Part shown: one piece after another, positions 10,161 through 62,493 of the stretch
How the letters are laid out: every line of letters starts with the position of its first letter
Position numbering within the stretch: position 1 is the stretch's first letter
DNA from: an uncultured Verrucomicrobiae bacterium
GTDB lineage: Bacteria > Verrucomicrobiota > Verrucomicrobiia > Chthoniobacterales > Chthoniobacteraceae
NCBI GenBank assembly: GCA_963769025.1
Contig: CAVYKI010000006.1
Span: 631,986-695,985, forward strand
Direction: 5' to 3'
DNA length: 64,000 bases
The notes under the pieces: generated by a model
What the model saw: the letters and a program-made list of their open reading frames with translations, nothing else
The model's database searches: none
Told to the model about the DNA's origin: nothing
Position numbers and translations under genes: made by a program

Positions 10161-12212
10161 TCATCCTGCGGGATTTTCATCGCGATTCTCCGTCACCCGC
10201 CGGATTGCTGCGATGAGCAGCGGGACTTCGATGGGCTTTACCAAGTGCTCGCTGAAACCCGCCATGCGGCTGCGGCGCACGTCCTCATCCATTCCGTAGC
10301 CGCTCATCGCGATGCAGGGGATGGCGCGGGTCGCCCGGATGCGCTGTATCAGTTCACACCCGCTCCCATCGGGCAGGCCGAGATCGCTCACTACCACATC
10401 AAAGTGTGCCTGCTCGGCGATGGCGAGAGCGTCGGCGACACTGCTGGCTCCGGTGACAAGGCAGCCGGCAGCGCGCAGGAGCCGGGTGAGCGTGCGAGCG
10501 GTGTCGGCGTGATCCTCCACCAGGAGCAGCCGGATGACTCCCGGGCGGCCCGCGGCCTCGGCCAATTCAGGCGGCAGACTTGCGGCAGTGGCATTGAGAC
10601 CCGGGAGTTCGATGACAAACGTCGCGCCGTGGCCCGGGCCGTCGCTTTCGGCGCGAATCGTGCCGCCTTGCAATTCGACCAGCGCACGGGAGATGGCGAG
10701 GCCGAGGCCCATCCCGCCGAAGCGTCGGGTGACACTGCCGTCGCCCTGCTCGAAGGCCTCGAAGATGCGTGGTAACGCATCGGGCGGTATTCCGATTCCC
10801 GTGTCGCTCACGCGTACTTCGCGGCGATCGTCGAGAAGCGCCGTGCTCACGCGGACGATGCCATCAGCGGGCGTGAACTTGACCGCGTTTTTGAGCACGT
10901 TCCAAAGCACCTGCTGGAGGCGGGCTGGGTCGGCCGCGACGAAACCGACTTCACCGGAAAATTGGGTTTCGAGGCGTACGTTTTGTTCGAGGAGCTGCTG
11001 GTGGCAGATGCCGCAGACACTGCGGATTGCGGCATTCAGATCGACGGCTTCAGTTTTCAATTCGATTTTCCCGCTGGCGATGCGGTTGAGATCCAGCAGG
11101 TCATCGATGAGCTTCGTCTCCAACTCGACGTTGCGCTTGATCATGATGATGTCTTCGCGCACGTCGGGCCGCAGGCCGGGATCGTGCTCCAGCGCACCTA
11201 CGGCCATGAGAACGGGCGTAAGCGGGGTTCTCAATTCGTGGCTGAGCACGGCGAGGAAGCGGTCCTTCGCCTGGTTCGCAGTTTCCGCGAGGTTCTTGGC
11301 CGCATGTAGCGCCTCCTCGGCGCGCTTTCTCTCGGTGATATCCCCGAAATAAACCGAGAGCCCGTCCTCCGATGGATAGCAGCGGCATTCGATCCACCGC
11401 GCGATGGGATCCGGGTAGAATTCCTCGAAATGGAGCGGTTGCCGGGTCTCCACGGCCCGGTGGAATTCCGCGAAGAACTTCCTCTCTTTCGCGCCCGAAA
11501 AAACATCCCACACGCACCCGCCGATCATGTCTTCGGGACTCACGCCGAGCAATTGCGCTCCTTGCTTGCTGAAATAGGAAAAGCGCCACTCCTTGTCCAT
11601 GACTGCGAGCCCATCGGTGATGCTGCCGAGCACGGTCTGCAGTCTGAGGTGGGCCTTGGCCAACGCCTCATCCGCGAGCTTGCGCCCGGTGATGTCGCGG
11701 ATGGCGGCGAGCCTGCCCACTGACTGGCCGGCGGTGTCCCGCAGCACGCTGACACTGGACTCCACATGCAAACGGCGACCATCCCGCCGGATGTGGATGC
11801 TTTCCCCCCGCCATTCGCCGTGTTCGCGCAACGCGTCGGTCGCAGCGGCCTCGTCCTCAGCGCGCAGCCAGCGGGTTTCGTGGATCCTCGCCACGTGGCG
11901 GCCGAGGACTTCGGAAGCTGTCACACCGTATTGCCGTTCGGCGGCGGCATTAAGGAAGGTCACGCGTTTGTCGTCATCCACTACGATGACGGCATCGCTG
12001 ACCTGTGCGAGGATCTCGCCGCGGAACCGGTTCGATTCTGCGTCCACGCCCTGGAGCGTGAAGACCCGCGGGCCCGACTCGCCGTCGATGACGAGCGCAT
12101 CCACCTCGCCGCAGCGGATGGCGCGCAAAGCCTCCTCCGCCTCTTCCAAGCGCGCGCGCAACTCCGCGTTCTCGGCGAGAAGCGATTGGTCGGGGGTGGC
12201 GTTTGCGGCCAT
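10161..12212 (-). CDS. Cytoplasmic PAS-PAS hybrid sensor histidine kinase with C-terminal receiver
   Basis: Two PAS domains (DITGRK, DITERK), H-box SHELRTPL, NVLKNAVKF, DTGIG, GMGLGL and a REC domain (VSDLGLPDG); no TM segment. Confidence 0.93.
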   Translation of the reverse strand: MAANATPDQSLLAENAELRARLEEAEEALRAIRCGEVDALVIDGESGPRVFTLQGVDAESNRFRGEILAQVSDAVIVVDDDKRVTFLNAAAERQYGVTASEVLGRHVARIHETRWLRAEDEAAATDALREHGEWRGESIHIRRDGRRLHVESSVSVLRDTAGQSVGRLAAIRDITGRKLADEALAKAHLRLQTVLGSITDGLAVMDKEWRFSYFSKQGAQLLGVSPEDMIGGCVWDVFSGAKERKFFAEFHRAVETRQPLHFEEFYPDPIARWIECRCYPSEDGLSVYFGDITERKRAEEALHAAKNLAETANQAKDRFLAVLSHELRTPLTPVLMAVGALEHDPGLRPDVREDIIMIKRNVELETKLIDDLLDLNRIASGKIELKTEAVDLNAAIRSVCGICHQQLLEQNVRLETQFSGEVGFVAADPARLQQVLWNVLKNAVKFTPADGIVRVSTALLDDRREVRVSDTGIGIPPDALPRIFEAFEQGDGSVTRRFGGMGLGLAISRALVELQGGTIRAESDGPGHGATFVIELPGLNATAASLPPELAEAAGRPGVIRLLLVEDHADTARTLTRLLRAAGCLVTGASSVADALAIAEQAHFDVVVSDLGLPDGSGCELIQRIRATRAIPCIAMSGYGMDEDVRRSRMAGFSEHLVKPIEVPLLIAAIRRVTENRDENPAG

Positions 12213-12607: not shown

Positions 12608-12936
12608 TCCCTGTCCTTCAACGGCTGAAGGTTCAGGCCAACGAGTACCCGTTCCTCATTGGACAGGTCCCCGATGATCTTTTTGATCGGTTCGGGCAGC
12701 CGGCGCACGAGGGTGGGGACGGCGAGGATTTGATCGCCCGCTGCGAGTTGGGGTGTTTTCAGGAGGTCGATGACTTCGATGCGATACTTGCCGGCAAGGT
12801 GCGTTTCGCAGATGCGCTTGAGGTTCTTGAACGCCGCGAGCGATTTCGGAGTCTGTCCTGCGACGTAGAGCCGCAGCTCGATCTGCGATGGCATGGCCGC
12901 GGCCGCTCGTTTCATTTTGGAGGGGGTGTCGATCAT
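12604..12936 (-). CDS. kaiB: KaiB-family protein (first copy)
   Basis: [12 protein letters not shown]...LKRICETHL...[24 protein letters not shown]; start overlaps the kaiC stop (ATGA). Confidence 0.93.
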
Positions 12937-14678
12937 GGTTTTCCGTTGGTTCGTCGTTTGCCGTCCATTGCCCCGCCGCGCAAGCGGGCCATGGCTTCGG
13001 TGTTTTTCTGCTCGGCTTCTTCCTCCACGGCCTCCCGTGCGGTTGCGAGGGAGACATCGAGCGATCCCGCCTCCACTTCGGCCTGCAACGCCGCGATCTG
13101 TGCTTCGATTGCCTTCCGCTTTCCGGCGAACTGGCGCAACATCCGTTCGTGCTCCTGCCGGCGCAGGTCTGCAGCGGCGCGCTCCCGGCCTTGCTGCACG
13201 ACACGTGCGGTGCCAGTGAGCACCCGGTCCGCGCCGAGGTAGACATCCACGAGGTCGATGCCCTTGTCCGTCAGGACGAACTCCCGCACTTGATTCGAGT
13301 GGGCCATGCCGCGCGCCTTCAGGACGTAAATGGTGCGGTTGCGCTCGCCATTGGTTTCCACGTTCCGCAGCAGCAGCCAAGCATCCATGAGGGACGACAC
13401 ACCCACCTGCGAATCCTCAGGCGAAGCCGTCGCGCCGCCTCCGGTTGTCAGGCTGGTAAAAAGCGCGGTGATCTGCTGCTGCTTCAGAAAATCGATCAGC
13501 CGCATGAGCGTCGGCTTCACCTCCCATTCGCTGCGCTCGAGCGTGAGATTGCTGATCGGATCGACCGCGACCACGCTCGGGCGGAACGCGCGCACCGTGT
13601 CGTGCATCATGACGAGATGCTGCTCCAGCCCGTGCATCGTCGGGCGGGATGAATGAATCTGGAGAAGTCCCTTTTTCACCCACCGGGCGAGGTCGATGCC
13701 GATGGCGCTCATGTTGCGGATGATCTGCGCGCTGGACTCCTCGTAGGCAAAAAGGAGCGCCCGCTCGCCGCGCTTGCATGCGGTTTCCACGAACTTTGCG
13801 GCGATACTGCTTTTGCCGGTGCCGGGGGAACCGGAGATGAGCATGCTGCTCCCGCGGAAGATGCCCTTGCCGCCGAGCATCTCATCGAGCCGTGCGATTC
13901 CGGTGGGGATGCGCTCCGCCGGGGCTTTGTGATCGAGCTGAAGCGAAGTGATGGGCAGCACCGAGAGGCCGCGCTCACCGATGAGGAAAGGGTACTCATT
14001 CGTGCCGTGCGCGGTTCCGCGATACTTCAGCACCCGCAGGCGTCGGGTGGAAATTTGCTCCTGAAGCCGCTGGTCGAGGACGATCACACAATCGGCCACA
14101 TACTCCTCCAGCCCGAATCGCGTGAGCGAAGCCTCACCCTTTTCGCAAGTAATGACTGCCGTCATGCCCCGGTCCTTCAGCCAGCGGAAGAGCCGCCGCA
14201 ATTCCGCACGGAGGATGCCGTGGTTCGGAAGTCCGGAAAAAAGCGCCTCGAGAGTGTCGAGGACCACGCGTTTTGCGCCGATGGAATCAATGGCATGCGC
14301 GAGGCGGACGAAGAGACCTTCAAGATCGTATTCGCCGGTCTCCTCGATCTCGCTGCGCTCGACGTGAACGTGGTCGAGGACGATCTTTTTCCGGGCAACG
14401 AGCTTGTCGAGGTCGAAACCGAGCGAGCGGACATTGGCGGTCAGTTCCGCGGCGCTTTCCTCGAACATCATGAATACACCCGGCTGGCCAAACTCCGTCG
14501 CGCCGCGGATGAGGAATTCCATCGCGAGCATCGTCTTTCCGCTCCCGGCGCTCCCGCAGACCAGCGTGGGACGGCCTTTTGGCAGTCCGCCGCGGGTGAT
14601 TTCATCGAGGCCCACGATGCCTGTCGGCGCCTTTGGAAGGGTGGGGGGCTTATGCATTGTCTGTTTCTTGCCTTTCAT
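12933..14678 (-). CDS. kaiC: Double-domain KaiC (KaiC2-like) with C-terminal coiled coil
   Basis: Two RecA-like domains: [22 protein letters not shown] and [26 protein letters not shown]; phosphosite region GVSSLMD. Confidence 0.96.
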
Positions 14679-18836: not shown

Positions 18837-20350
18837 CAAAAAAGGCGGTCGCAAGGGTGGGCGCTCGGGAAGCAAGCGGAAGACCAAAGCTTGAACCCGC
18901 GATCACTCAGGCAGAGCGCTCCGACTTCGGGGCTGCAAAATCGGCAACTGCCAGCGCTTATGAGTGGCCGCAGTTTGGGCGGAGGTTGGATGAGGAAAGT
19001 TTCATCGGACGAATACATCCAAAATCGGGACATTCTGCGTTCGGAGGTTGCTATGAAAAAGTCAACGCAATCCACCAATCCCGAACCCTCTCACGACGAA
19101 ATTTCCGCACGCGCGCAGCAGATTTACGAAGAACAGGGCTGCCCATGCGGGAAAGCTGAGGAGCACTGGCGCGAAGCCGAGTGCCAATTGCGGGAGGCGA
19201 AGGCCAGTGACGCAGAGATGGGTGTTGTAGGTGCCCCGGCGCCGACAAAACCCGTGGCGGGCGCTTAACAGACCGGCCAGTTCGAAAACTTCTGCCAGCA
19301 ACTCTCCGAGCAGAAGCCCGGAGTCTGCTTCTGGTCCCGCCAAAGCTGCTCAGCCAACACAGGCCGCGGCGCGGTGCGCCTCGGAATCTGTTGAAATGAG
19401 CCAACGCCAATTCTTCCGCCTATTTGGCCGCGAGCTGCGAATTCGTTGTGGATGAAATCACTTCCATCGATATTTCGGGACGCCTTCGCCTCGTGGATGG
19501 CGCACAAGGGTCCCAAAATGGGCGCGGCTCTGGCGTATTACACGGCGTTCTCGCTGGCACCTCTGCTCGTGCTTCTTGCGGGCATTTTAGGATTGGTGAT
19601 TGATAATGATACGGCACGGACAGCGCTTGTGGGTCAGATTCACGACCTCATGGGCGACGAGGGCGGTGCAATGGTCGAAGCGATCCTCCAACGCTCAGCA
19701 CCGCACGAAAAGGGCGTATTGGCGACAATCATTGGCTCAGTGGTCTTGCTGTTAGGGGCGTCCGGCGTATTTGTTGAACTGCACGACTCGCTGAACACCA
19801 TCTGGGAAACCCCGCCGCGCTCCCGGCCATGGGTTGCATTCATCTGCGAGCGGCTGCTGTCGTTCGCGATGGTGTTCGCCCTTGGCTTCCTCGTGCTGGT
19901 GTCGCTCGTCGCGTCGGCGATCCTCGCAGCGGTAGGTTCCTACGTGAAAGGCTGGGCACCTGGATTCGAGGTGCTCTTGGAAGCCGCCAACTCGCTGGTG
20001 TCGTTCGTGGTGGTCACGTTGCTGTTCGGGGGACTGTTTCGGTTCCTGCCGGATGTGAAGGTCGCATGGCGCAATGTCTGGGCGGGAGCGGTCATCACGG
20101 CGGCGCTCTTCATTCTCGGAAAATTCCTCATTGGGTTCTACATCGGACGAAGCAGTTTCGCATCGGCGTACGGTGCCGCAGGATCCCTTGTGATCGTCCT
20201 GGTGTGGGTTTTCTATTCAGCGCAGATTTTCTTTTTCGGCGCGGAATTCACCCGGGCATTCGCACGCACGAACGGAGGCGTTCGAACGGCTCGGCATTCT
20301 GACCGCACGACATCCCTCGCTGCGATGCCTGCAGCACCGGAGGGCAACTT
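18837..20350 (+). repeat. 1,514-bp direct repeat, copy 2
   Basis: Matches 7882-9395; ends exactly at the IS left end. Confidence 0.95.
19053..19268 (+). CDS. DUF2934 domain protein (copy 2)
   Basis: Identical protein to 8098-8313. Confidence 0.85.
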   Translation: MKKSTQSTNPEPSHDEISARAQQIYEEQGCPCGKAEEHWREAECQLREAKASDAEMGVVGAPAPTKPVAGA

Positions 20351-20402
20351 GAGACCTCTGCGAAAAGCGAGTTTGCGCATGATAGGCAGGCATGAAAGCT
20401 AA
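19452..20402 (+). CDS. YihY/BrkB family protein (copy 2) with 16-aa IS-derived C-terminal extension
   Basis: Same as copy 1 except one M>L change; reads through into the IS end (RPLRKASLRMIGRHES). Confidence 0.85.
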   Translation: MKSLPSIFRDAFASWMAHKGPKMGAALAYYTAFSLAPLLVLLAGILGLVIDNDTARTALVGQIHDLMGDEGGAMVEAILQRSAPHEKGVLATIIGSVVLLLGASGVFVELHDSLNTIWETPPRSRPWVAFICERLLSFAMVFALGFLVLVSLVASAILAAVGSYVKGWAPGFEVLLEAANSLVSFVVVTLLFGGLFRFLPDVKVAWRNVWAGAVITAALFILGKFLIGFYIGRSSFASAYGAAGSLVIVLVWVFYSAQIFFFGAEFTRAFARTNGGVRTARHSDRTTSLAAMPAAPEGNLRPLRKASLRMIGRHES

Positions 20403-21543
20403 ACGGCGGAAATTTGCGGGCGGGGCTCGGCGCAGACGGAGTGGGAACAGCCGGACGGGTGGTGAAAAGCCAAGGTCATCGTCCCGGTGGGGGCGCTCCG
20501 GGGTGTGCGGCGGGTGGTTTTCATGCGGTGCACAGGGTCACGAGACGCTTGAGGTTCCAGGCCACGCTCTTGAGCTGGAGTTCGAGGGTGCCTTTGCGCA
20601 GGCCGGTGTAGCGCATCCGCCGCCAGCCGAGTACGCGCTTCCAGTGGCCGAAGATTTTCTCGATGCCGGCGCGCGTGGCAGCCAGCCAGCCGTTGACCTC
20701 CTGCTGCTCGTCGGTGAGCGGGCGGTTGCGGCGCGCGGGCTCCATCAGCCCGCTGTGGATGCCTCGGGCGGCCAGCCATGCCTCGTGCTCGGCGCTGTAG
20801 TAGGCTTTGTCGGCGATGGCCATCTCGGTGTCCGCCGGGCACACGTCCTTGAATTTTCGGCTGTCATGCACATTAGCTGCCGTCAGTTCCGCGGTGCGGA
20901 TGAGCGTGTGCTCCTCGTCGGCGGCGACGTGTGCCTTGAACCCGTAATAGGCCCGGCCTCCCTTGGTCGCGTAGCCGGCCTCGGGGTCGCCCTGCGTGCC
21001 GTCGGCGCGCTCGGCATGGGTGGGCTTGCGCCGCGCACTCTCGACGATGGTCGCATCCACGAGCGTGACGCTTTTGACCATCAGCCCGCGCGCTTCGAGT
21101 TGGGCATTCACCAGTCCGAGCAGCCGCGTGTGCAGCCCCCTCGCCACCAGCCGTGCGCGATACCGAACAAGCGCCGTCTCGTCCGGCACGCGATCCGCCA
21201 GGCCCAGCCCGCAGAACTCCCGGAAGCTGCGCCGGTCGGCCACCTGCGCCTCGCACTCCGGGTCGCTCAAGTCATAGAAGTGCTGCAGCAGCGTCATCTT
21301 GAACATCACCAGCGGGTCGTGCGGGTCGCGCCCGCGCGTGGCCGTGTATGCCTCACGCAGCGCTGCCTCGATCGGCGTGAAGTCCACCACACTCTCCAGC
21401 TTGCCGAGGAATCTCGCCGTGCGGTTGCCCCGGTTCTCACGGTTGGCCATCTCATCCACGAAGTTCATCTGACGTTCGCTTTTGCTCATGCGTTCTTCGA
21501 TCCCTCTCCCTCACATGCCTTGGGGGATTTTCGCAGAGGTCTC
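20351..21543 (-). mobile_element. IS5-family insertion sequence (~1.19 kb)
   Basis: Perfect 16-bp terminal inverted repeats GAGACCTCTGCGAAAA (20351-66) / TTTTCGCAGAGGTCTC (21528-43) around a single DDE transposase. Confidence 0.93.
20521..21489 (-). CDS. IS5-family DDE transposase
   Basis: LLQHFYDLSD, VPDET, VDATIV, YYGFKAH, ANVHD, ADKAY and RAGIEKIFGHWKR. Confidence 0.95.
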   Translation of the reverse strand: MSKSERQMNFVDEMANRENRGNRTARFLGKLESVVDFTPIEAALREAYTATRGRDPHDPLVMFKMTLLQHFYDLSDPECEAQVADRRSFREFCGLGLADRVPDETALVRYRARLVARGLHTRLLGLVNAQLEARGLMVKSVTLVDATIVESARRKPTHAERADGTQGDPEAGYATKGGRAYYGFKAHVAADEEHTLIRTAELTAANVHDSRKFKDVCPADTEMAIADKAYYSAEHEAWLAARGIHSGLMEPARRNRPLTDEQQEVNGWLAATRAGIEKIFGHWKRVLGWRRMRYTGLRKGTLELQLKSVAWNLKRLVTLCTA

Positions 21544-21545
21544 AG

Positions 21546-21779
21546 AATGTTTGCAAATATAGGGTTTTGCGCGGCATGACGCAGGAGGAGCTCGCGGCGA
21601 AGGCGGAAATGGACCGGAGCTACCTCGCGCGGATCGAGTCCGGCAATGCGAAGGCGTCGGTGGACCTCATCGAGCGCCTCGCGATGGGGCTGGAGGTCGC
21701 CCCGGAGAAATTGCTTCACGGCTATGCCCGGAGCGCCGGGGCCTTGCGGTCGCGGAATGGGAGCCATCAGCCGGCGTGA
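21546..21779 (+). pseudogene. XRE/Cro-family HTH regulator, 5' end cut by the IS
   Basis: In-frame NVCKYRVLRGMTQEELAAKAEMDRSYLARIESGNAKASVDLIERLA begins directly at the IS right end. Confidence 0.75.
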
Positions 21780-21879
21780 TCCCCGGGCCATGCGTTTCAT
21801 AGTGTCAGCCAATGGGAACGGGACGGGCGGGAACGGGGGGATTCCTGCGCAGGACACGCTGCTCCCCGGTCTCATTAGG

Positions 21880-22425
21880 CAATCATTCCTGAGGGATGGG
21901 AGGGTCCGGGTCGCGGCCGGACAATCGTTCCCGGCAGACAACTCGCTCCGGGAGGCGGGCAGACAATCGTTTTCAAGGGACAACCCGCTCCGGCATCCCG
22001 AAACACAATCGTTTTCGGGGGACGACCGGCTCCGGCGGGTGAAAACACAATCGTTCCTGAGAGTCACCCGGCTCCGGTCTCTCAGGAATGATTGTGTTTT
22101 GGCACCCGCCGCTCTCAGTCCCGTCAAAACGCAATCAGTCCTGAGAGTCCCCACCCTGCCGGGTGAGAAAAGACAATCGTTATTGAGAGTCCCGAGCCGG
22201 TTGTCTGCCAATTTTGATTGTCGGGCGAGGCTCCGGAGCGAGGTGTCTGCCAATCCGGATTGTTTCCTGAGGTCCCGGAGCGGGGTGCCCCCCGAAAACG
22301 ATTGTGTCCTGACGTTCCCGGGTCTCCTGCCGGTCAAAAATGATTGTTTTGCGGCGTTCCCAAGCGGGTCGCCGGTCGGGACGGATTGGTTTCCCGCCTC
22401 CCGGAGCCTTCCGTCCCCCGGGAAG
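21880..22425. repeat. 13-unit degenerate array with exact 42-bp period and dyad-symmetric orientation
   Basis: CAATC at 21880, 21922, 21964, 22006, 22048, 22132, 22174; GATTG at 22090, 22216, 22258, 22300, 22342, 22384; secondary motif GCTCCGG/CCGGAGC. Confidence 0.92.
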
Positions 22426-22540
22426 CTTTGCGGATCGGGAGGGTCCAGTCTCAAGACGGCCAGGACCGAAAGCGGATGCGGCGAACGGGACTGTGGCATC
22501 GGCGCGCAGGCGCGTGGCGCAGTGAAGCGTGGCGGAGCCT

Positions 22541-22675
22541 TTGGACTGCGGCGGCTTGACGCCGCTTTCCGTTTCGAGGCTTGCCGAGAAGCCGGTGGTG
22601 CGGGGCTTCCCGATGGCCTCCCACGCTCGCCAAGGCTCGCCATACCCAAAGCGGCGTCAAGCCGCCGCACTCCAT
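22541..22675. repeat. REP doublet (REPIN-like) module 1
   Basis: GGACTGCGGCGGCTTGACGCCGCTTT ... AAAGCGGCGTCAAGCCGCCGCACTCC inverted pair; spacer motifs shared with modules at 24.5-24.9 kb. Confidence 0.8.
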
Positions 22676-22717
22676 GGGCTCCGCCCATCCTGCCGCGTGC
22701 CCGTTTTCCACTCCGTC

Positions 22718-23746
22718 ATGAGCCGCTGGGATGATCCGTCCACGACGTGGGACTCCTTTTTCTGGGATGCGCCGGATGCCCCGGTGCCGCCCCCGACCAA
22801 ACACAGGAAAACAAACCGACGAACCATGAGCAGCAACCCCACCCCGGACAACAACGACATCCTCCGCGCCCTGGCCGATCGCATCGCGGACGGGTGCAAT
22901 ACCCATGAAACGGCCATCGGCATCAAGCAGAACACGGAGGCGGCCATCCGCGCGGCGCTCGCGGTCCTCGATGCGGCGCAGTACCAGCTCGGCCAGAAGC
23001 GGGCCGCGGTGGATGCCGGCTACGGAGCCATGCAGGCGGCGGATGTGGCCGGACAGACGACAGTCACGAACTGCAAGCTGCGCCTCCGGCAGAAGCTCGG
23101 CGAACGCTGGAGCGCGGCATGGGAGCCGACCGGCTTCCCGCACCAGTCCACCGCCGTGCCCGGCACGCAGGACGAGCGGTTCACGCTGCTCAAGAAGCTG
23201 AACACCTACTTCACCAATGTGCCTGCGAACGAAAGCGCCGACATGGGAGCGACCGCCGCGCTGTGCCTGGCGGCGTGGGACGCCCTCTCGAATGCCCGGC
23301 AGTCGGTGGCGGACGCCGAGGCCGCTGAGACCGGCGCCGCGAGCGCCCATGCCGCCGCCGCGGAAGCCCTTCGGAAGCGGGTGCGCGGGCTCATCAATGA
23401 GCTGGGCGGCCTGATCGAGGACGACGACCCGCGCTACGAGGCGTTCGGCCTGAACATCCCGGCAAACCCGAGCGCGCCGGAGCCGGTGTCCGGCGTCACG
23501 CTGGCGCCGCTGGGCAACGGGCGCTTCTCGGCGAGCTGGCCCTACGCGACGCGGGCGGTGCGGTTCCGCGTGGAGACATTAGTCATGGGCACGGATACGG
23601 AATGGCAGAACAAGGGGAGCTTCCGGGACCTGGAGGCGATCCTGAAGAACTTCGCCGCGGGGCAGACCGTGAAGGTGCGGATCGTCGCCGGAAACGACGG
23701 CGGCGACGCCGCGCCGAGCCCGGAGGGGAGCGTCGTCGTCGCGTAA
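22718..23746 (+). CDS. Helical/coiled-coil protein with C-terminal fibronectin type III-like domain
   Basis: N-terminal WDDPSTTWDSFFWD, Ala-rich helices, then PSAPEPVSGVTLA...FSASW...FRVE...W...GQTVKVRIVAGNDGGDAAPS. Alternative start at 22826. Confidence 0.75.
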   Translation: MSRWDDPSTTWDSFFWDAPDAPVPPPTKHRKTNRRTMSSNPTPDNNDILRALADRIADGCNTHETAIGIKQNTEAAIRAALAVLDAAQYQLGQKRAAVDAGYGAMQAADVAGQTTVTNCKLRLRQKLGERWSAAWEPTGFPHQSTAVPGTQDERFTLLKKLNTYFTNVPANESADMGATAALCLAAWDALSNARQSVADAEAAETGAASAHAAAAEALRKRVRGLINELGGLIEDDDPRYEAFGLNIPANPSAPEPVSGVTLAPLGNGRFSASWPYATRAVRFRVETLVMGTDTEWQNKGSFRDLEAILKNFAAGQTVKVRIVAGNDGGDAAPSPEGSVVVA

Positions 23747-23769: not shown

Positions 23770-23929
23770 GTGAGAGTTGAGGGTTGAGGGTTGAGAGATG
23801 AGAGGCTGACTCGGCCGGCTAACAGTCCCCTTCCCTTTCAATAGCCTGCGTCCATCTCCGCATTGCATCAGTTCCCAGCTTCCGCCTCCTAACTTCCGCC
23901 TCTCCACTCTTAACCCTCAACTCTCAACT
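23770..23929. repeat. Inverted pair of heptamer tandem tracts (GTTGAGR / YCTCAAC)
   Basis: GTGAGA GTTGAGG GTTGAGG GTTGAGA GATGAGA at ~23770-23803; CTCTCCA CTCTTAA CCCTCAA CTCTCAA CT at ~23900-23929. Confidence 0.75.
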
Positions 23930-23934
23930 GAAGA

Positions 23935-24534
23935 ATGTTCGACCCTTCCCTCCCCGCCGATGCCACCAAGGCCACCGCCGCAGAGATGCGCGCGCAACTC
24001 ACCGGGCTGAAGGCGGAAATCGACGCCATCCCGGGCATCACCTCGGCGGTGGTGGATTCGGTGACGACGACCGGTCCCGGCGAGCCGGCGACGGTGAGCG
24101 TGTCCGTGATCGGGACGGTGTTGCATATTAGCCTTGCGCTGCCGCGCGGGGCGGATGGCGTCCCCGGCATGCAGGGCGAACAGGGGTTGCAAGGTCCGCC
24201 ATTTGCCAGTGCGGTCATCGACAGCGTCGGCACGCTGAATCCCGGGGAGAATGCGACGGTGTCGGTGTCCTTCGACGGGAGCACGGTGCATTTCAGCTTT
24301 GGCATCCCGCGCGGGGCGCAGGGGGAGCAGGGCATCCAGGGCGAGTCGGGCCAGGTGACGACCGAGGCGCTCAACGGGGCGATTTCCTCTGCTCTCGCGG
24401 GCACCTCGAACAACACGAACGGGGTCGCCGCCATGGACACGCCTTTCACCAACGACCCGCCGACCCTGGCCGACCTGGAGCTGATGCGGGCGAACTACAA
24501 CCTGCTGGTCGCGGCGCTGCGCCGGCAGGTGTAG
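23935..24534 (+). CDS. Collagen-like (Gly-X-Y) protein with duplicated beta-rich module
   Basis: Two copies of SAV(V/I)DSV.T..PGE.ATVSVS..G..(L/V)H.S...PRGA, each followed by GxY triplets. Confidence 0.75.
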   Translation: MFDPSLPADATKATAAEMRAQLTGLKAEIDAIPGITSAVVDSVTTTGPGEPATVSVSVIGTVLHISLALPRGADGVPGMQGEQGLQGPPFASAVIDSVGTLNPGENATVSVSFDGSTVHFSFGIPRGAQGEQGIQGESGQVTTEALNGAISSALAGTSNNTNGVAAMDTPFTNDPPTLADLELMRANYNLLVAALRRQV

Positions 24535-24537
24535 CCC

Positions 24538-24880
24538 CTGGACTGCGGCAGCTCGCTGCCGCTTTCGGCTTCGAGGCTTGCCGAGAAGGGGGTGGGGCGT
24601 GTGACCGGATGCCACCCCGCGCTCGCCAAGGCTCGCCGGCCACAAAGCGGAGGCGAGCCTCCGCAGTCCAGGGCTACGCGACACCTTTGAAGTTCGGGTC
24701 GTCGATTCCCTTCAGCTCGCTGCCGCTTTCGGCTTCGAGGCTTGCCGAGAAGGGGGTGGAGCGTGACCTTCGGCACGCTTCGCAGGGCAAGTCTTGCAAA
24801 CGGAAACCCGGCCCGGACACCGCACCACGCTCGCCAAGGCTCGCCGGCCACAAAGCGGAGGCGAGCCTCCGCAGTCCAGG
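24538..24880. repeat. Two tandem REP-doublet modules enclosing a duplicated DUF1552 gene 3' end
   Basis: GGACTGCGGCAGCTCGCTGCCGCTTTC and AAAGCGGAGGCGAGCCTCCGCAGTCCAG (the latter twice, 208 bp apart). Confidence 0.8.
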
Positions 24881-24881
24881 G

Positions 24882-62421: not shown

Positions 62422-62493
62422 GCCAGAGTAGCTCAGTGGTAGAGCAGCGGTTTCGTAAACCGCAGGTCAAGGGTTCAATCCCCTTCTCTGGCT
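62422..62493 (+). tRNA. tRNA-Thr(CGT)
   Basis: Acceptor GCCAGAG/CTCTGGC, D-arm GCTCAGTGGTAGAGC, anticodon stem GCGGT-TTCGTAA-ACCGC, T-loop GGTTCAATCC; CCA not encoded. Confidence 0.95.

Follow-up and report, generated by a model that had tools for sequence, protein, structure and literature searches.

What kind of element is a stretch of DNA in which a 5-bp core returns every 42 bp, now in one orientation and now in the other, and what is its relation to the gene that follows? The question is raised by positions 21880-22425 of a 64,000-nt stretch of contig CAVYKI010000006.1 from an uncultured Verrucomicrobiae bacterium (the window), where a first reading, made from the sequence alone, had described thirteen such units upstream of a gene encoding a 342-residue protein, here called P342. 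We find that this array represents a conserved non-coding element, probably acting in cis, which stands before P342-family genes in Verrucomicrobiota. The element is apparently undescribed, since no account of a 42-bp element of this kind was found in the open-access literature, subscription journals and closed supplements lying outside the scope of that search.

A 42-bp array and its counterparts upstream of P342 genes

The cores CAATC or GATTG lie at 21880+42k (k = 0 to 12) without a single indel and span 21880-22388, at exactly the positions given in the sequence-only reading. They flip in the same register in the order FFFFFRFFRRRRR (F F F F F R F F R R R R R), units 1-5, 7 and 8 being forward and units 6 and 9-13 reverse. 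CAATC and GATTG together have 90 copies in the whole window, and 42-bp runs outside the array do not exceed 1; of 200 mononucleotide shuffles, 182 had 1 as their longest run and 18 had 2, and none had more. When up to one mismatch was allowed, the core motif had 15 matches in the window against 9.7 expected, 8 of the 15 inside the array; outside the array it is not enriched. No further 42-periodic stretch was found elsewhere in the 64 kb. Tandem Repeats Finder reported just 2.8 copies (21937-22055) because the units are only about 66% alike, and the array is, as had been recognised, neither a CRISPR array nor an ordinary homogenised tandem repeat.

A profile built from an alignment of 25 P342 relatives was used to search genome contigs and yielded 80 loci (L001-L080), several per genome. 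These loci are chromosomal, with up to five in one genome. For each case we asked for at least 168 nt (at least four units) of 42-periodic DNA in the 1.1 kb upstream of the P342 homologue; 73 loci and the window gave 74 cases, seven loci with less than 200 nt of upstream sequence being left out. A 42-bp-periodic array was present in 63 of the 74, in line with the earlier expectation that such arrays would be met near homologues of this protein, compared with 1 of 61 control regions located 2.3-3.4 kb downstream and 0 of 52 located 2.2-3.3 kb upstream. The same test with periods of 36, 39, 40, 41, 44, 45 or 48 bp gave 0 of 74, and a period of 43 bp gave 1 of 74 (L063). Shorter 42-periodic stretches of 133-149 nt occur in four (L034, L036, L057, L069) of the eleven cases that lack a 168-nt stretch (L005, L034, L036, L053-L057, L063, L069, L078).

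Arrays contain 2 to 13 units (median 7.7). In most of the related arrays the identity between units is 80-98% over the 42 bp; between loci, unit sequences are unrelated. The unit length itself is therefore conserved, as the 42-bp period is kept although the sequences that fill it are not. The fetched loci (1.11 Mb) and the window contained only three further 42-periodic stretches, two of which are a 7-bp microsatellite and a probably coding stretch in L056. The third, at 20331-20750 of L029, looks like a second genuine array, with ten 42-bp units of a different sequence and without a clear copy of the P2 box described below; it lies 10 kb downstream of the L029 module, and the gene downstream of it is beyond the fetched DNA. 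A search with blastn found no match of the window array in phage and plasmid collections, where the sequence-only reading had suggested looking for matches of its variable segments.

Unit plan and sequence constraint

Although their sequences differ, the units share a plan consisting of a locus-specific palindrome (P1) and a family-wide palindrome (P2), the centres of which are exactly 21 bp apart. P1 has arms of 5-9 bp around a centre of 1-3 nt and measures 13-19 bp overall, whereas P2 reads GAG-N-CTC, often GGAG-N-CTCC, and extends over 7-9 bp symmetrically about one central base. The spacing was measured in the 34 arrays that have a distinct consensus and only one perfect P2 box: their dyad score averaged 6.0 of 8 at offset 21 from the P2 centre, compared with 1.5-2.8 at all other non-zero offsets, and the best dyad was located exactly at offset 21 in 23 of the 34. 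Dyad centres thus recur every 21 bp, and the array forms a helically phased lattice. As 42 bp correspond to four turns of B-DNA and 21 bp to two, all sites lie on one face of the helix; the earlier suggestion that 42 bp is a helical-phase unit fits these independent arrays. Such a lattice maps onto itself when reversed, so that a segment can invert about a dyad without change of register or spacing, and for this reason the core can appear flipped in the same register. P2, with its one-base centre, cannot form an RNA hairpin and has the form of a normal dimer site.

Pairing between the two P1 arms is of the Watson-Crick type in 74-86% at distances 2-6 from the centre and in 47% at distance 1. 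G.T combinations outnumber A.C combinations by 165 to 120 (19 versus 13 arrays), an excess that is not significant. The two strands are alike in composition (GC skew 0.04 ± 0.15, positive in 37 of 63 arrays; purine fraction 0.503), and orientation relative to the gene is weakly detectable, with 27 of 38 arrays assigned correctly in a leave-one-out test. An attempt to call a canonical orientation of the window units failed, this family-wide directional signal being too weak.

GANTC, a methylation-type site, occurs in 34 of 68 distinct consensus units from the 80 loci, compared with 9.2 ± 2.7 in shuffles, and is concentrated at the P1 centre and inside P2; three cores of L004 read GAATC/GATTC where the window has CAATC/GATTG. 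From the sequence, a methylation-sensitive switch at these sites is conceivable.

In the window each unit carries a partly palindromic site at the CAATC core and, 21 bp off, a half-degenerate CCGGAGC/GCTCCGG box. The P1 arms, which are similar on the + strand in forward and reverse units, flank the asymmetric core, and P2 is reduced to one half, either CCGGAGC or GCTCCGG. It is this asymmetric P1 centre together with one intact P2 half that makes inversions visible in the window lineage.

The window array has an ortholog in L004, the P342 protein of which is 73% identical to that of the window and which has an array of 17 units. The two arrays align unit by unit without gaps at 72% identity over 14 units. 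Identity reaches 34-35 of 42 positions (80-83%) in units 5-7 and 32-33 in the inverted units 11-12, and falls to 23 in units 9-10; agreement over this whole range, 23-35 of 42, shows that the segments formerly described as variable are not fast-changing spacers. Four-fold degenerate sites of the adjacent gene are identical in 63% (90/142), a figure that is itself inflated by codon bias, and most of the array, including its unit-specific parts, is therefore under purifying selection. The mismatches to L004 are spread over the three codon phases as 48/58/59 (p = 0.51) in the array and as 55/43/102 in the neighbouring gene. As they show no codon phase, the array is non-coding and not translated. 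The stop-free frames noticed earlier on both strands do exist (open reading frames (ORFs) 21646-22734 on the + strand and 21486-22688 on the − strand), and the view that the constraint acts on nucleotides rather than on a protein is borne out.

The sequence-only reading had also seen a strict mirror centred on 22134, in which unit i always opposes unit 14−i. The exact mirror is not conserved: it is incidental, because L004 carries two extra units on the left. What is retained is a two-armed design, with forward units on the left, reverse units on the right and the same junction between them, which is common to the window, L004 and L051. The switch from forward to reverse and the F-R-F-F centre are identical in the window and L004, and the central junction is found again at units 7/8 of L004 and in the rows at −490/−448 of L051, between oppositely oriented arms. 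Within the window, 26 of 30 positions agree, as described, between 22006-22035 and the reverse complement of 22275-22304, and the stem of about 22 bp proposed for units 5 and 6 corresponds to a 22-nt inverted repeat with 95% complementarity (22042-22063 and 22079-22100, 15 nt between the arms). A consensus test for flipped units was positive in 1 (L051) of 55 other arrays, but this test also missed the flips of L004, which are visible only in a register listing. Judged from these comparisons, the two-armed design is an old, stable variant of one sub-lineage and not the rule. Inversion of a segment about a dyad in the common ancestor of the three arrays, which the lattice rendered harmless, accounts for the flipped cores.

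The genomic module and the surroundings of the window array

The P342-family gene is the sole gene that is always linked to such arrays. Array and P342 gene form the invariant core, because the other two partners, an XRE-family regulator gene and a gene for a collagen-like protein, are confined to a closer subfamily. This subfamily, with at least 46% identity, comprises roughly L001-L052; locus numbers do not separate it exactly, as L058 and L060, both partial matches, are also of the closer kind. The order in the closer relatives is XRE regulator, array, helical and FN3 protein (P342), collagen-like protein. The sequence-only reading had connected the array with both proteins encoded downstream; this holds for the P342 family, whereas the collagen-like gene accompanies the array in the closer subfamily only, where it is found downstream in 42 of 51 loci.

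In the closer subfamily a small ORF on the + strand ends just before the array. Its product matched the helix-turn-helix (HTH) families HTH_3 or HTH_31 in 18 of 22 tested loci, two of these matches being below the Pfam cut-off; the remaining four comprise one GerE-type HTH, one weak TrmB match and two ORFs without match. A local hidden Markov model of the upstream ORFs recovered them in 38 of 42 closer loci, a count that is circular for this group because the model was built from those same ORFs.

Genes with a role in defence are frequent further upstream. The nearest upstream gene of at least 280 residues matched PADLOC (E ≤ 1e-10) in 25 of 50 loci, namely in 24 of 34 closer and 1 of 16 distant ones. 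The 24 matches of the closer group are Cas9 (nine), Cas12b (six), type I or IIG restriction-modification (seven), an Aga-type restriction endonuclease (one) and a Hhe/Mko-like helicase-nuclease (one); Pfam adds McrBC in L014 as well as cas1, cas2 and cas4 next to the effector genes. The loci cannot be counted as independent, since BLAST clusters reveal several orthologous contexts in related metagenome-assembled genomes (MAGs), with at least three CRISPR and several restriction contexts involved. Ordinary CRISPR arrays with 36-nt repeats spaced at 65-72 bp lie beyond the cas genes of closer loci. In L019 (1-722), L029 (30-855), L032 (2251-3679) and L033 (6-613), all complete class 2 loci in Verrucomicrobiota MAGs, they hold 9-21 repeats and are located past cas2 of Cas12b and Cas9 operons pointing away from the module.

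Downstream, the arrays of L023, L065, L068, L070 and L075 extend almost to the gene, stopping about 20-40 nt short of the start codon. Genes of the distant subfamily have a Shine-Dalgarno sequence (GGAGG) directly after the array, whereas leaders of the closer subfamily are pyrimidine-rich (0.63 versus 0.51 in the distant one) and lack a Shine-Dalgarno sequence. P2 was considered as the Shine-Dalgarno sequence of the gene and rejected, given that closer leaders have no GGAG near the ATG and distant genes have their own after the array. Two promoter types were also discarded: sigma-54 −24/−12 elements in the unit consensus fit by their spacing in one array only (judged by eye), and extracytoplasmic-function-type promoters (GGAAT...GTCT) are disfavoured by an asymmetric centre whose direction differs from array to array. 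Apart from this, the last 40 nt before the start codon contain direct-repeat heptamers with CAATCC in L004 and L007, and the last 60-100 nt contain copies of a CTCCAAGTCTCC-like motif, which equals one P2 half, in L006, L018, L019, L022, L034, L037 and L052.

Both downstream proteins belong to large families. Of 8000 candidates scored, 314 are related to P342 at E ≤ 1e-3. Many of them are on contigs of 1-3 kb, and their position at contig ends is probably due to breaks that the arrays cause in short-read assemblies. The protein begins with a disordered N-terminus rich in W and D, continues as a long helical hairpin bundle (about residues 46-243) and ends in an FN3 domain (AlphaFold2: pLDDT 84.1, pTM 0.66). 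Foldseek against PDB and BFVD, a PDB profile search and the ESM Atlas returned the FN3 domain or unnamed clusters only. No P342 family was found in Pfam, PHROG, NCBIfam or PADLOC, and no relatives were found in phage and plasmid collections, tblastn included. The collagen-like protein has 981 relatives at E ≤ 1e-3, every one named "hypothetical"; it matches Pfam Collagen at 3.6e-4, below the cut-off, and PHROG tail-fibre and minor-tail families. The best relatives of the window proteins come from Verrucomicrobiota MAGs labelled Chthoniobacter, Prosthecobacter and Verrucomicrobiaceae.

The features around the window array are compiled in Table 1. Pfam revealed no defence gene upstream of this array; the place is taken by an IS5-family insertion sequence (IS) and a BrkB-family gene. 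The transposase was identified by Pfam (DDE_Tnp_1, 6.7e-26; DUF772) and NCBIfam (IS5 family transposase, 9.6e-72), and inspection by eye showed terminal inverted repeats, about 17 nt long, at 20350 and 21544. The element sits between the 3′ end of the BrkB-family gene and the XRE gene, which it abuts, and its insertion has probably removed the original upstream neighbour of the module in this genome. The XRE gene itself is probably 5′-truncated by the IS, as its HTH_3 match begins at profile position 8, which falls on residue 2; the frame is open into the IS.

Table 1 Features of the window in and around the 42-bp array
Feature	Position	Strand	Basis or remark
BrkB-family gene	19446-20402		Left of the IS5 element; last codons supplied by the IS
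IS5-family insertion sequence	20350..21544	-	Transposase ORF 20521-21489
XRE-family helix-turn-helix ORF, 70 residues	21567..21779	+	Pfam HTH_3 1.6e-11; probably truncated
42-bp-periodic array, 13 units	21880..22425	no strand	5-mer spacing, L004 alignment
Central junction, long near-perfect palindrome of unit 5 (forward) and unit 6 (reverse)	22042..22100	no strand	Inverted repeat
Degenerate 14th unit, core CTTTG, box CCAGTCTCAAG	22426..22457	no strand	In register with L004 unit 16, 29/42
REP/MITE-like palindromic element, 155 nt	22531..22685	no strand	38-nt arms, 92% complementary
P342, conserved 342-aa protein	22718..23746	+	Profile relatives, AlphaFold2
Collagen-like, tail-fibre-like 199-aa protein	23935..24534	+	Weak Pfam Collagen, PHROG

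The element resembling repetitive extragenic palindromes (REP) or miniature inverted-repeat transposable elements (MITE) lies between the array and the P342 start and is separate from the array. It is present three times around the two genes, with further copies at 24536-24673 and about 24700-24881; the copies are about 155 nt long and have arms of 30-38 nt that are 87-92% complementary, with about 79 nt between them. A similar sequence was seen by eye directly upstream of the P342 start in L004 and L007. The gap between the P342 and collagen-like genes is filled by a separate inverted repeat (23775-23929; 35-nt arms, 86% complementary, 85 nt apart) that is built from GTTGAGG-like short repeats. 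Farther upstream in the window, a gene for a KaiC-family double-domain ATPase (12933-14678) adjoins a PAS histidine kinase/response-regulator hybrid gene (10161-12212).

Possible functions and comparison with known systems

We tentatively prefer, although with somewhat less than even confidence, the view that the array is a helically phased lattice of protein-binding sites that controls the downstream operon. Dimeric DNA-binding proteins would occupy the P1 and P2 sites cooperatively, with the adjacent XRE regulator as a candidate binder in the closer subfamily and some other factor at P2. The bound proteins might build an extended nucleoprotein structure that sets transcription of the P342 and collagen-like operon, and the number of units (2 to 13) could tune the response. 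The 42/21-bp grid is kept exactly across unrelated sequences. The lattice reading is further favoured by the P2 dyad, which is unfit as a hairpin, by the symmetry of the strands, to which the insignificant G.T excess and the faint orientation signal belong, by the constraint seen between the window and L004 arrays, and by the size of P1, which next to an XRE gene is that of an operator, Cro/CI-type operators measuring 14-18 bp. Paralogous modules of one genome (L004/L007/L046; L014/L041/L044) have different P1 sequences, as expected for sites that do not cross-react.

Several results weigh against this reading. The dyads of the window array are weak, scoring 1-6 of 8 for P1 and 0-3 of 4 for P2. 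The distant subfamily retains good P1 and P2 sites, yet the local model found an XRE ORF upstream in 0 of its 25 loci, so the XRE product is not a general binder, and a collagen-like gene follows in 1 of 25; given this lack of both partners, a cis-acting RNA would explain the linkage to the P342 gene more simply. Over all pairs, similarity of the HTH proteins is no guide to similarity of P1 (Spearman 0.05, p = 0.46). Similar HTH pairs mostly share P1 (mean identity 0.71-0.80 versus a background of 0.35), values in which shared descent is not controlled, but the same P1 occurs with unrelated HTH proteins (L002 versus L011/L014, similarity 0), and in the 91%-similar HTH pair of L014 and L016 the inner 3 bp of P1 are swapped in a compensatory way. 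Among double changes in P1 within arrays, 19 of 34 restore Watson-Crick pairing, compared with about one third expected, which favours selection for pairing as such. Finally, the closeness of arrays to the start codon, together with the failure of a scan of the window region to find a sigma-70-like promoter, suggests that the array is probably transcribed.

The main rival, ranked second and in our judgement possible but rather unlikely, is an RNA leader made of tandem hairpins. On this view the P342 mRNA would contain the array as its 5′ untranslated region or as an intercistronic spacer, with one P1 hairpin per unit joined by GGAG-N-CUCC linkers, and the array would control mRNA stability, translation or read-through, perhaps via a protein that binds each module. 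Much fits such a leader: the gene directly downstream is the only invariant partner of the array, as for cis-acting leaders in general, no regulator is adjacent in the distant subfamily, and several arrays end about 20-40 nt from the start codon, the distant Shine-Dalgarno sequence following right after the array. The P1 sequence turns over fully between loci while its pairing is kept, the drop of pairing to 47% next to the centre is that of a triloop hairpin, and both the compensatory double changes and the inner-stem swap of L014/L016, along with the occurrence of one P1 beside unrelated HTH proteins, would be natural for an RNA. However, there is no known reason for RNA hairpins to hold exactly 42 nt per unit and 21 nt between centres, and P2 is palindromic yet unable to form a hairpin. 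A sense-strand bias of G.U over A.C is not significant and a compositional skew of the strands is absent, and no Rfam covariance model matched the array at the gathering score, the sole match in the window being a tRNA at 62422-62493. Folding of the whole array does not support the long structured RNA that had been proposed, because both strands fold equally well (z −9.9 and −10.7), the arms being inverted copies of each other. The tolerance of inversion does not discriminate between DNA and RNA either, since a unit inverted about its near-dyad gives almost the same RNA.

A wider proposal, which we consider doubtful, is that the XRE gene, the array and the two fibre-like proteins constitute an undescribed defence-island module of Verrucomicrobiota with the array as its nucleic-acid component. 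In one possible variant the array would be a many-site switch that keeps an operon for surface fibres or receptor masking repressed, the repressor being removed upon infection or DNA damage; possibly, this switch would be coupled in cis to the neighbouring CRISPR-Cas or restriction loci.

Slightly less probable still is a recombination or copy-number switch, in which expansion, contraction or segmental inversion of the array alters downstream expression, or the array offers mobile defence cassettes a place to land. Where P1 is the same, copy number does differ between arrays (5.0 versus 10.8, 4.5 versus 9.3, 6.9 versus 4.7), arms are inverted in the window, L004 and L051, and unrelated kinds of defence genes stand just upstream in the 24 of 34 closer loci. 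But the window and L004 have one and the same inverted layout although their proteins diverge by 27%, so that this layout is old and stable rather than switching. Inverted units were seen in just one of the 55 other arrays by the test that overlooked those of L004, no recombinase is conserved beside the arrays, and the 21-bp dyad lattice would be left unexplained.

We regard as very unlikely a centromere-like or anchoring site of the sopC kind, at which the palindromes would load a partition-type or nucleoid-organising protein. The repeat layout of sopC of plasmid F is closely similar, but the neighbours scanned with Pfam include no ParA/ParB-type gene, the loci are chromosomal with as many as five in a genome, and neither P342 nor the array has plasmid or phage matches. 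That one strand encodes a protein with 14-residue repeats (QSF... or NDC...) is suggested by the long stop-free frames and by an indel-free period that is a multiple of 3, but is hardly credible given the absence of codon periodicity against L004, of Pfam matches of either ORF and of frame continuity with P342; moreover, flipped units cannot conserve a peptide, and open frames are common at the 63% G+C of the window. Equally little credit is due to a CRISPR-like form of the guide array that the sequence-only reading had considered, with constant repeats, variable guides and processing into 42-nt units: despite the regular spacing and the Cas9 or Cas12b operons upstream in 15 of 34 closer loci, those loci own ordinary CRISPR arrays, most 42-bp arrays (those with units 80-98% identical) have no variable part, that of the window is conserved between species, and arrays also stand beside restriction systems or, in the distant subfamily, without a defence gene nearby.

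Whatever its function, the element marks two large unannotated protein families (314 and 981 relatives), and the 42-bp signature is a simple means of finding the module. Its copies in the closer subfamily are immediate neighbours of class 2 CRISPR-Cas and restriction operons, and the element may bear on the regulation or organisation of immunity loci. If the defence-island proposal were true, it would be a new kind of periodic non-coding element of such loci beside CRISPR arrays and retron RNAs; if the arrays are orthogonal repressor-operator pairs, they would offer a ready-made set of non-cross-reacting parts. With its 42-bp grid and 21-bp dyads kept in more than 60 loci of unrelated unit sequence, it is an example of selection on length and phase instead of sequence, which is rare outside centromere-like sites.

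Among known systems, CRISPR arrays share with the element the regular spacing, the partial palindromes and, in 15 of 34 closer loci, nearby cas genes. The element has no unique spacers and a period of 42 instead of 65-72 bp; genuine CRISPR arrays are found on the other side of the same cas operons, and the element persists where no cas gene is near. Enterobacterial REP sequences and bacterial interspersed mosaic elements (BIME) are palindromic units outside genes that may alternate in orientation and may be clustered in tandem within operons; they are scattered, and their sequence is uniform. The likeness lies in the tandem extragenic palindromes and the occasional alternation, whereas REPs have hundreds of copies of one sequence genome-wide and here each array has its own sequence and is tied to one gene family.

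The closer subfamily, with a small HTH gene beside palindromes of operator size, recalls the operators of Cro/CI (XRE) repressors. Known operator regions of this type have 2-6 sites at irregular spacing; the element has 5-13 units on a strict 42-bp grid, its distant arrays have no adjacent XRE gene, and over all pairs HTH similarity does not track P1. To a symmetric binder the orientation of a site is irrelevant, and omega of pSM19035, a cooperative repressor, acts on its heptads in either orientation.

Formally, the closest analogue is sopC of plasmid F, in which a 43-bp unit is repeated directly 12 times and every unit contains a 16-bp inverted repeat to which SopB binds (PMC3177203). In both cases tandem non-coding units of a length near four helical turns carry an inverted-repeat site. 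In sopC the direct repeats are near-identical with one palindrome each, whereas here each unit has two palindromes at a 21-bp offset. While sopC follows sopAB on a plasmid and acts in segregation, the 42-bp element is chromosomal, multi-copy and always upstream of one gene family; unlike sopC, its site sequence differs in every locus, and parA and parB are absent from the neighbours scanned with Pfam.

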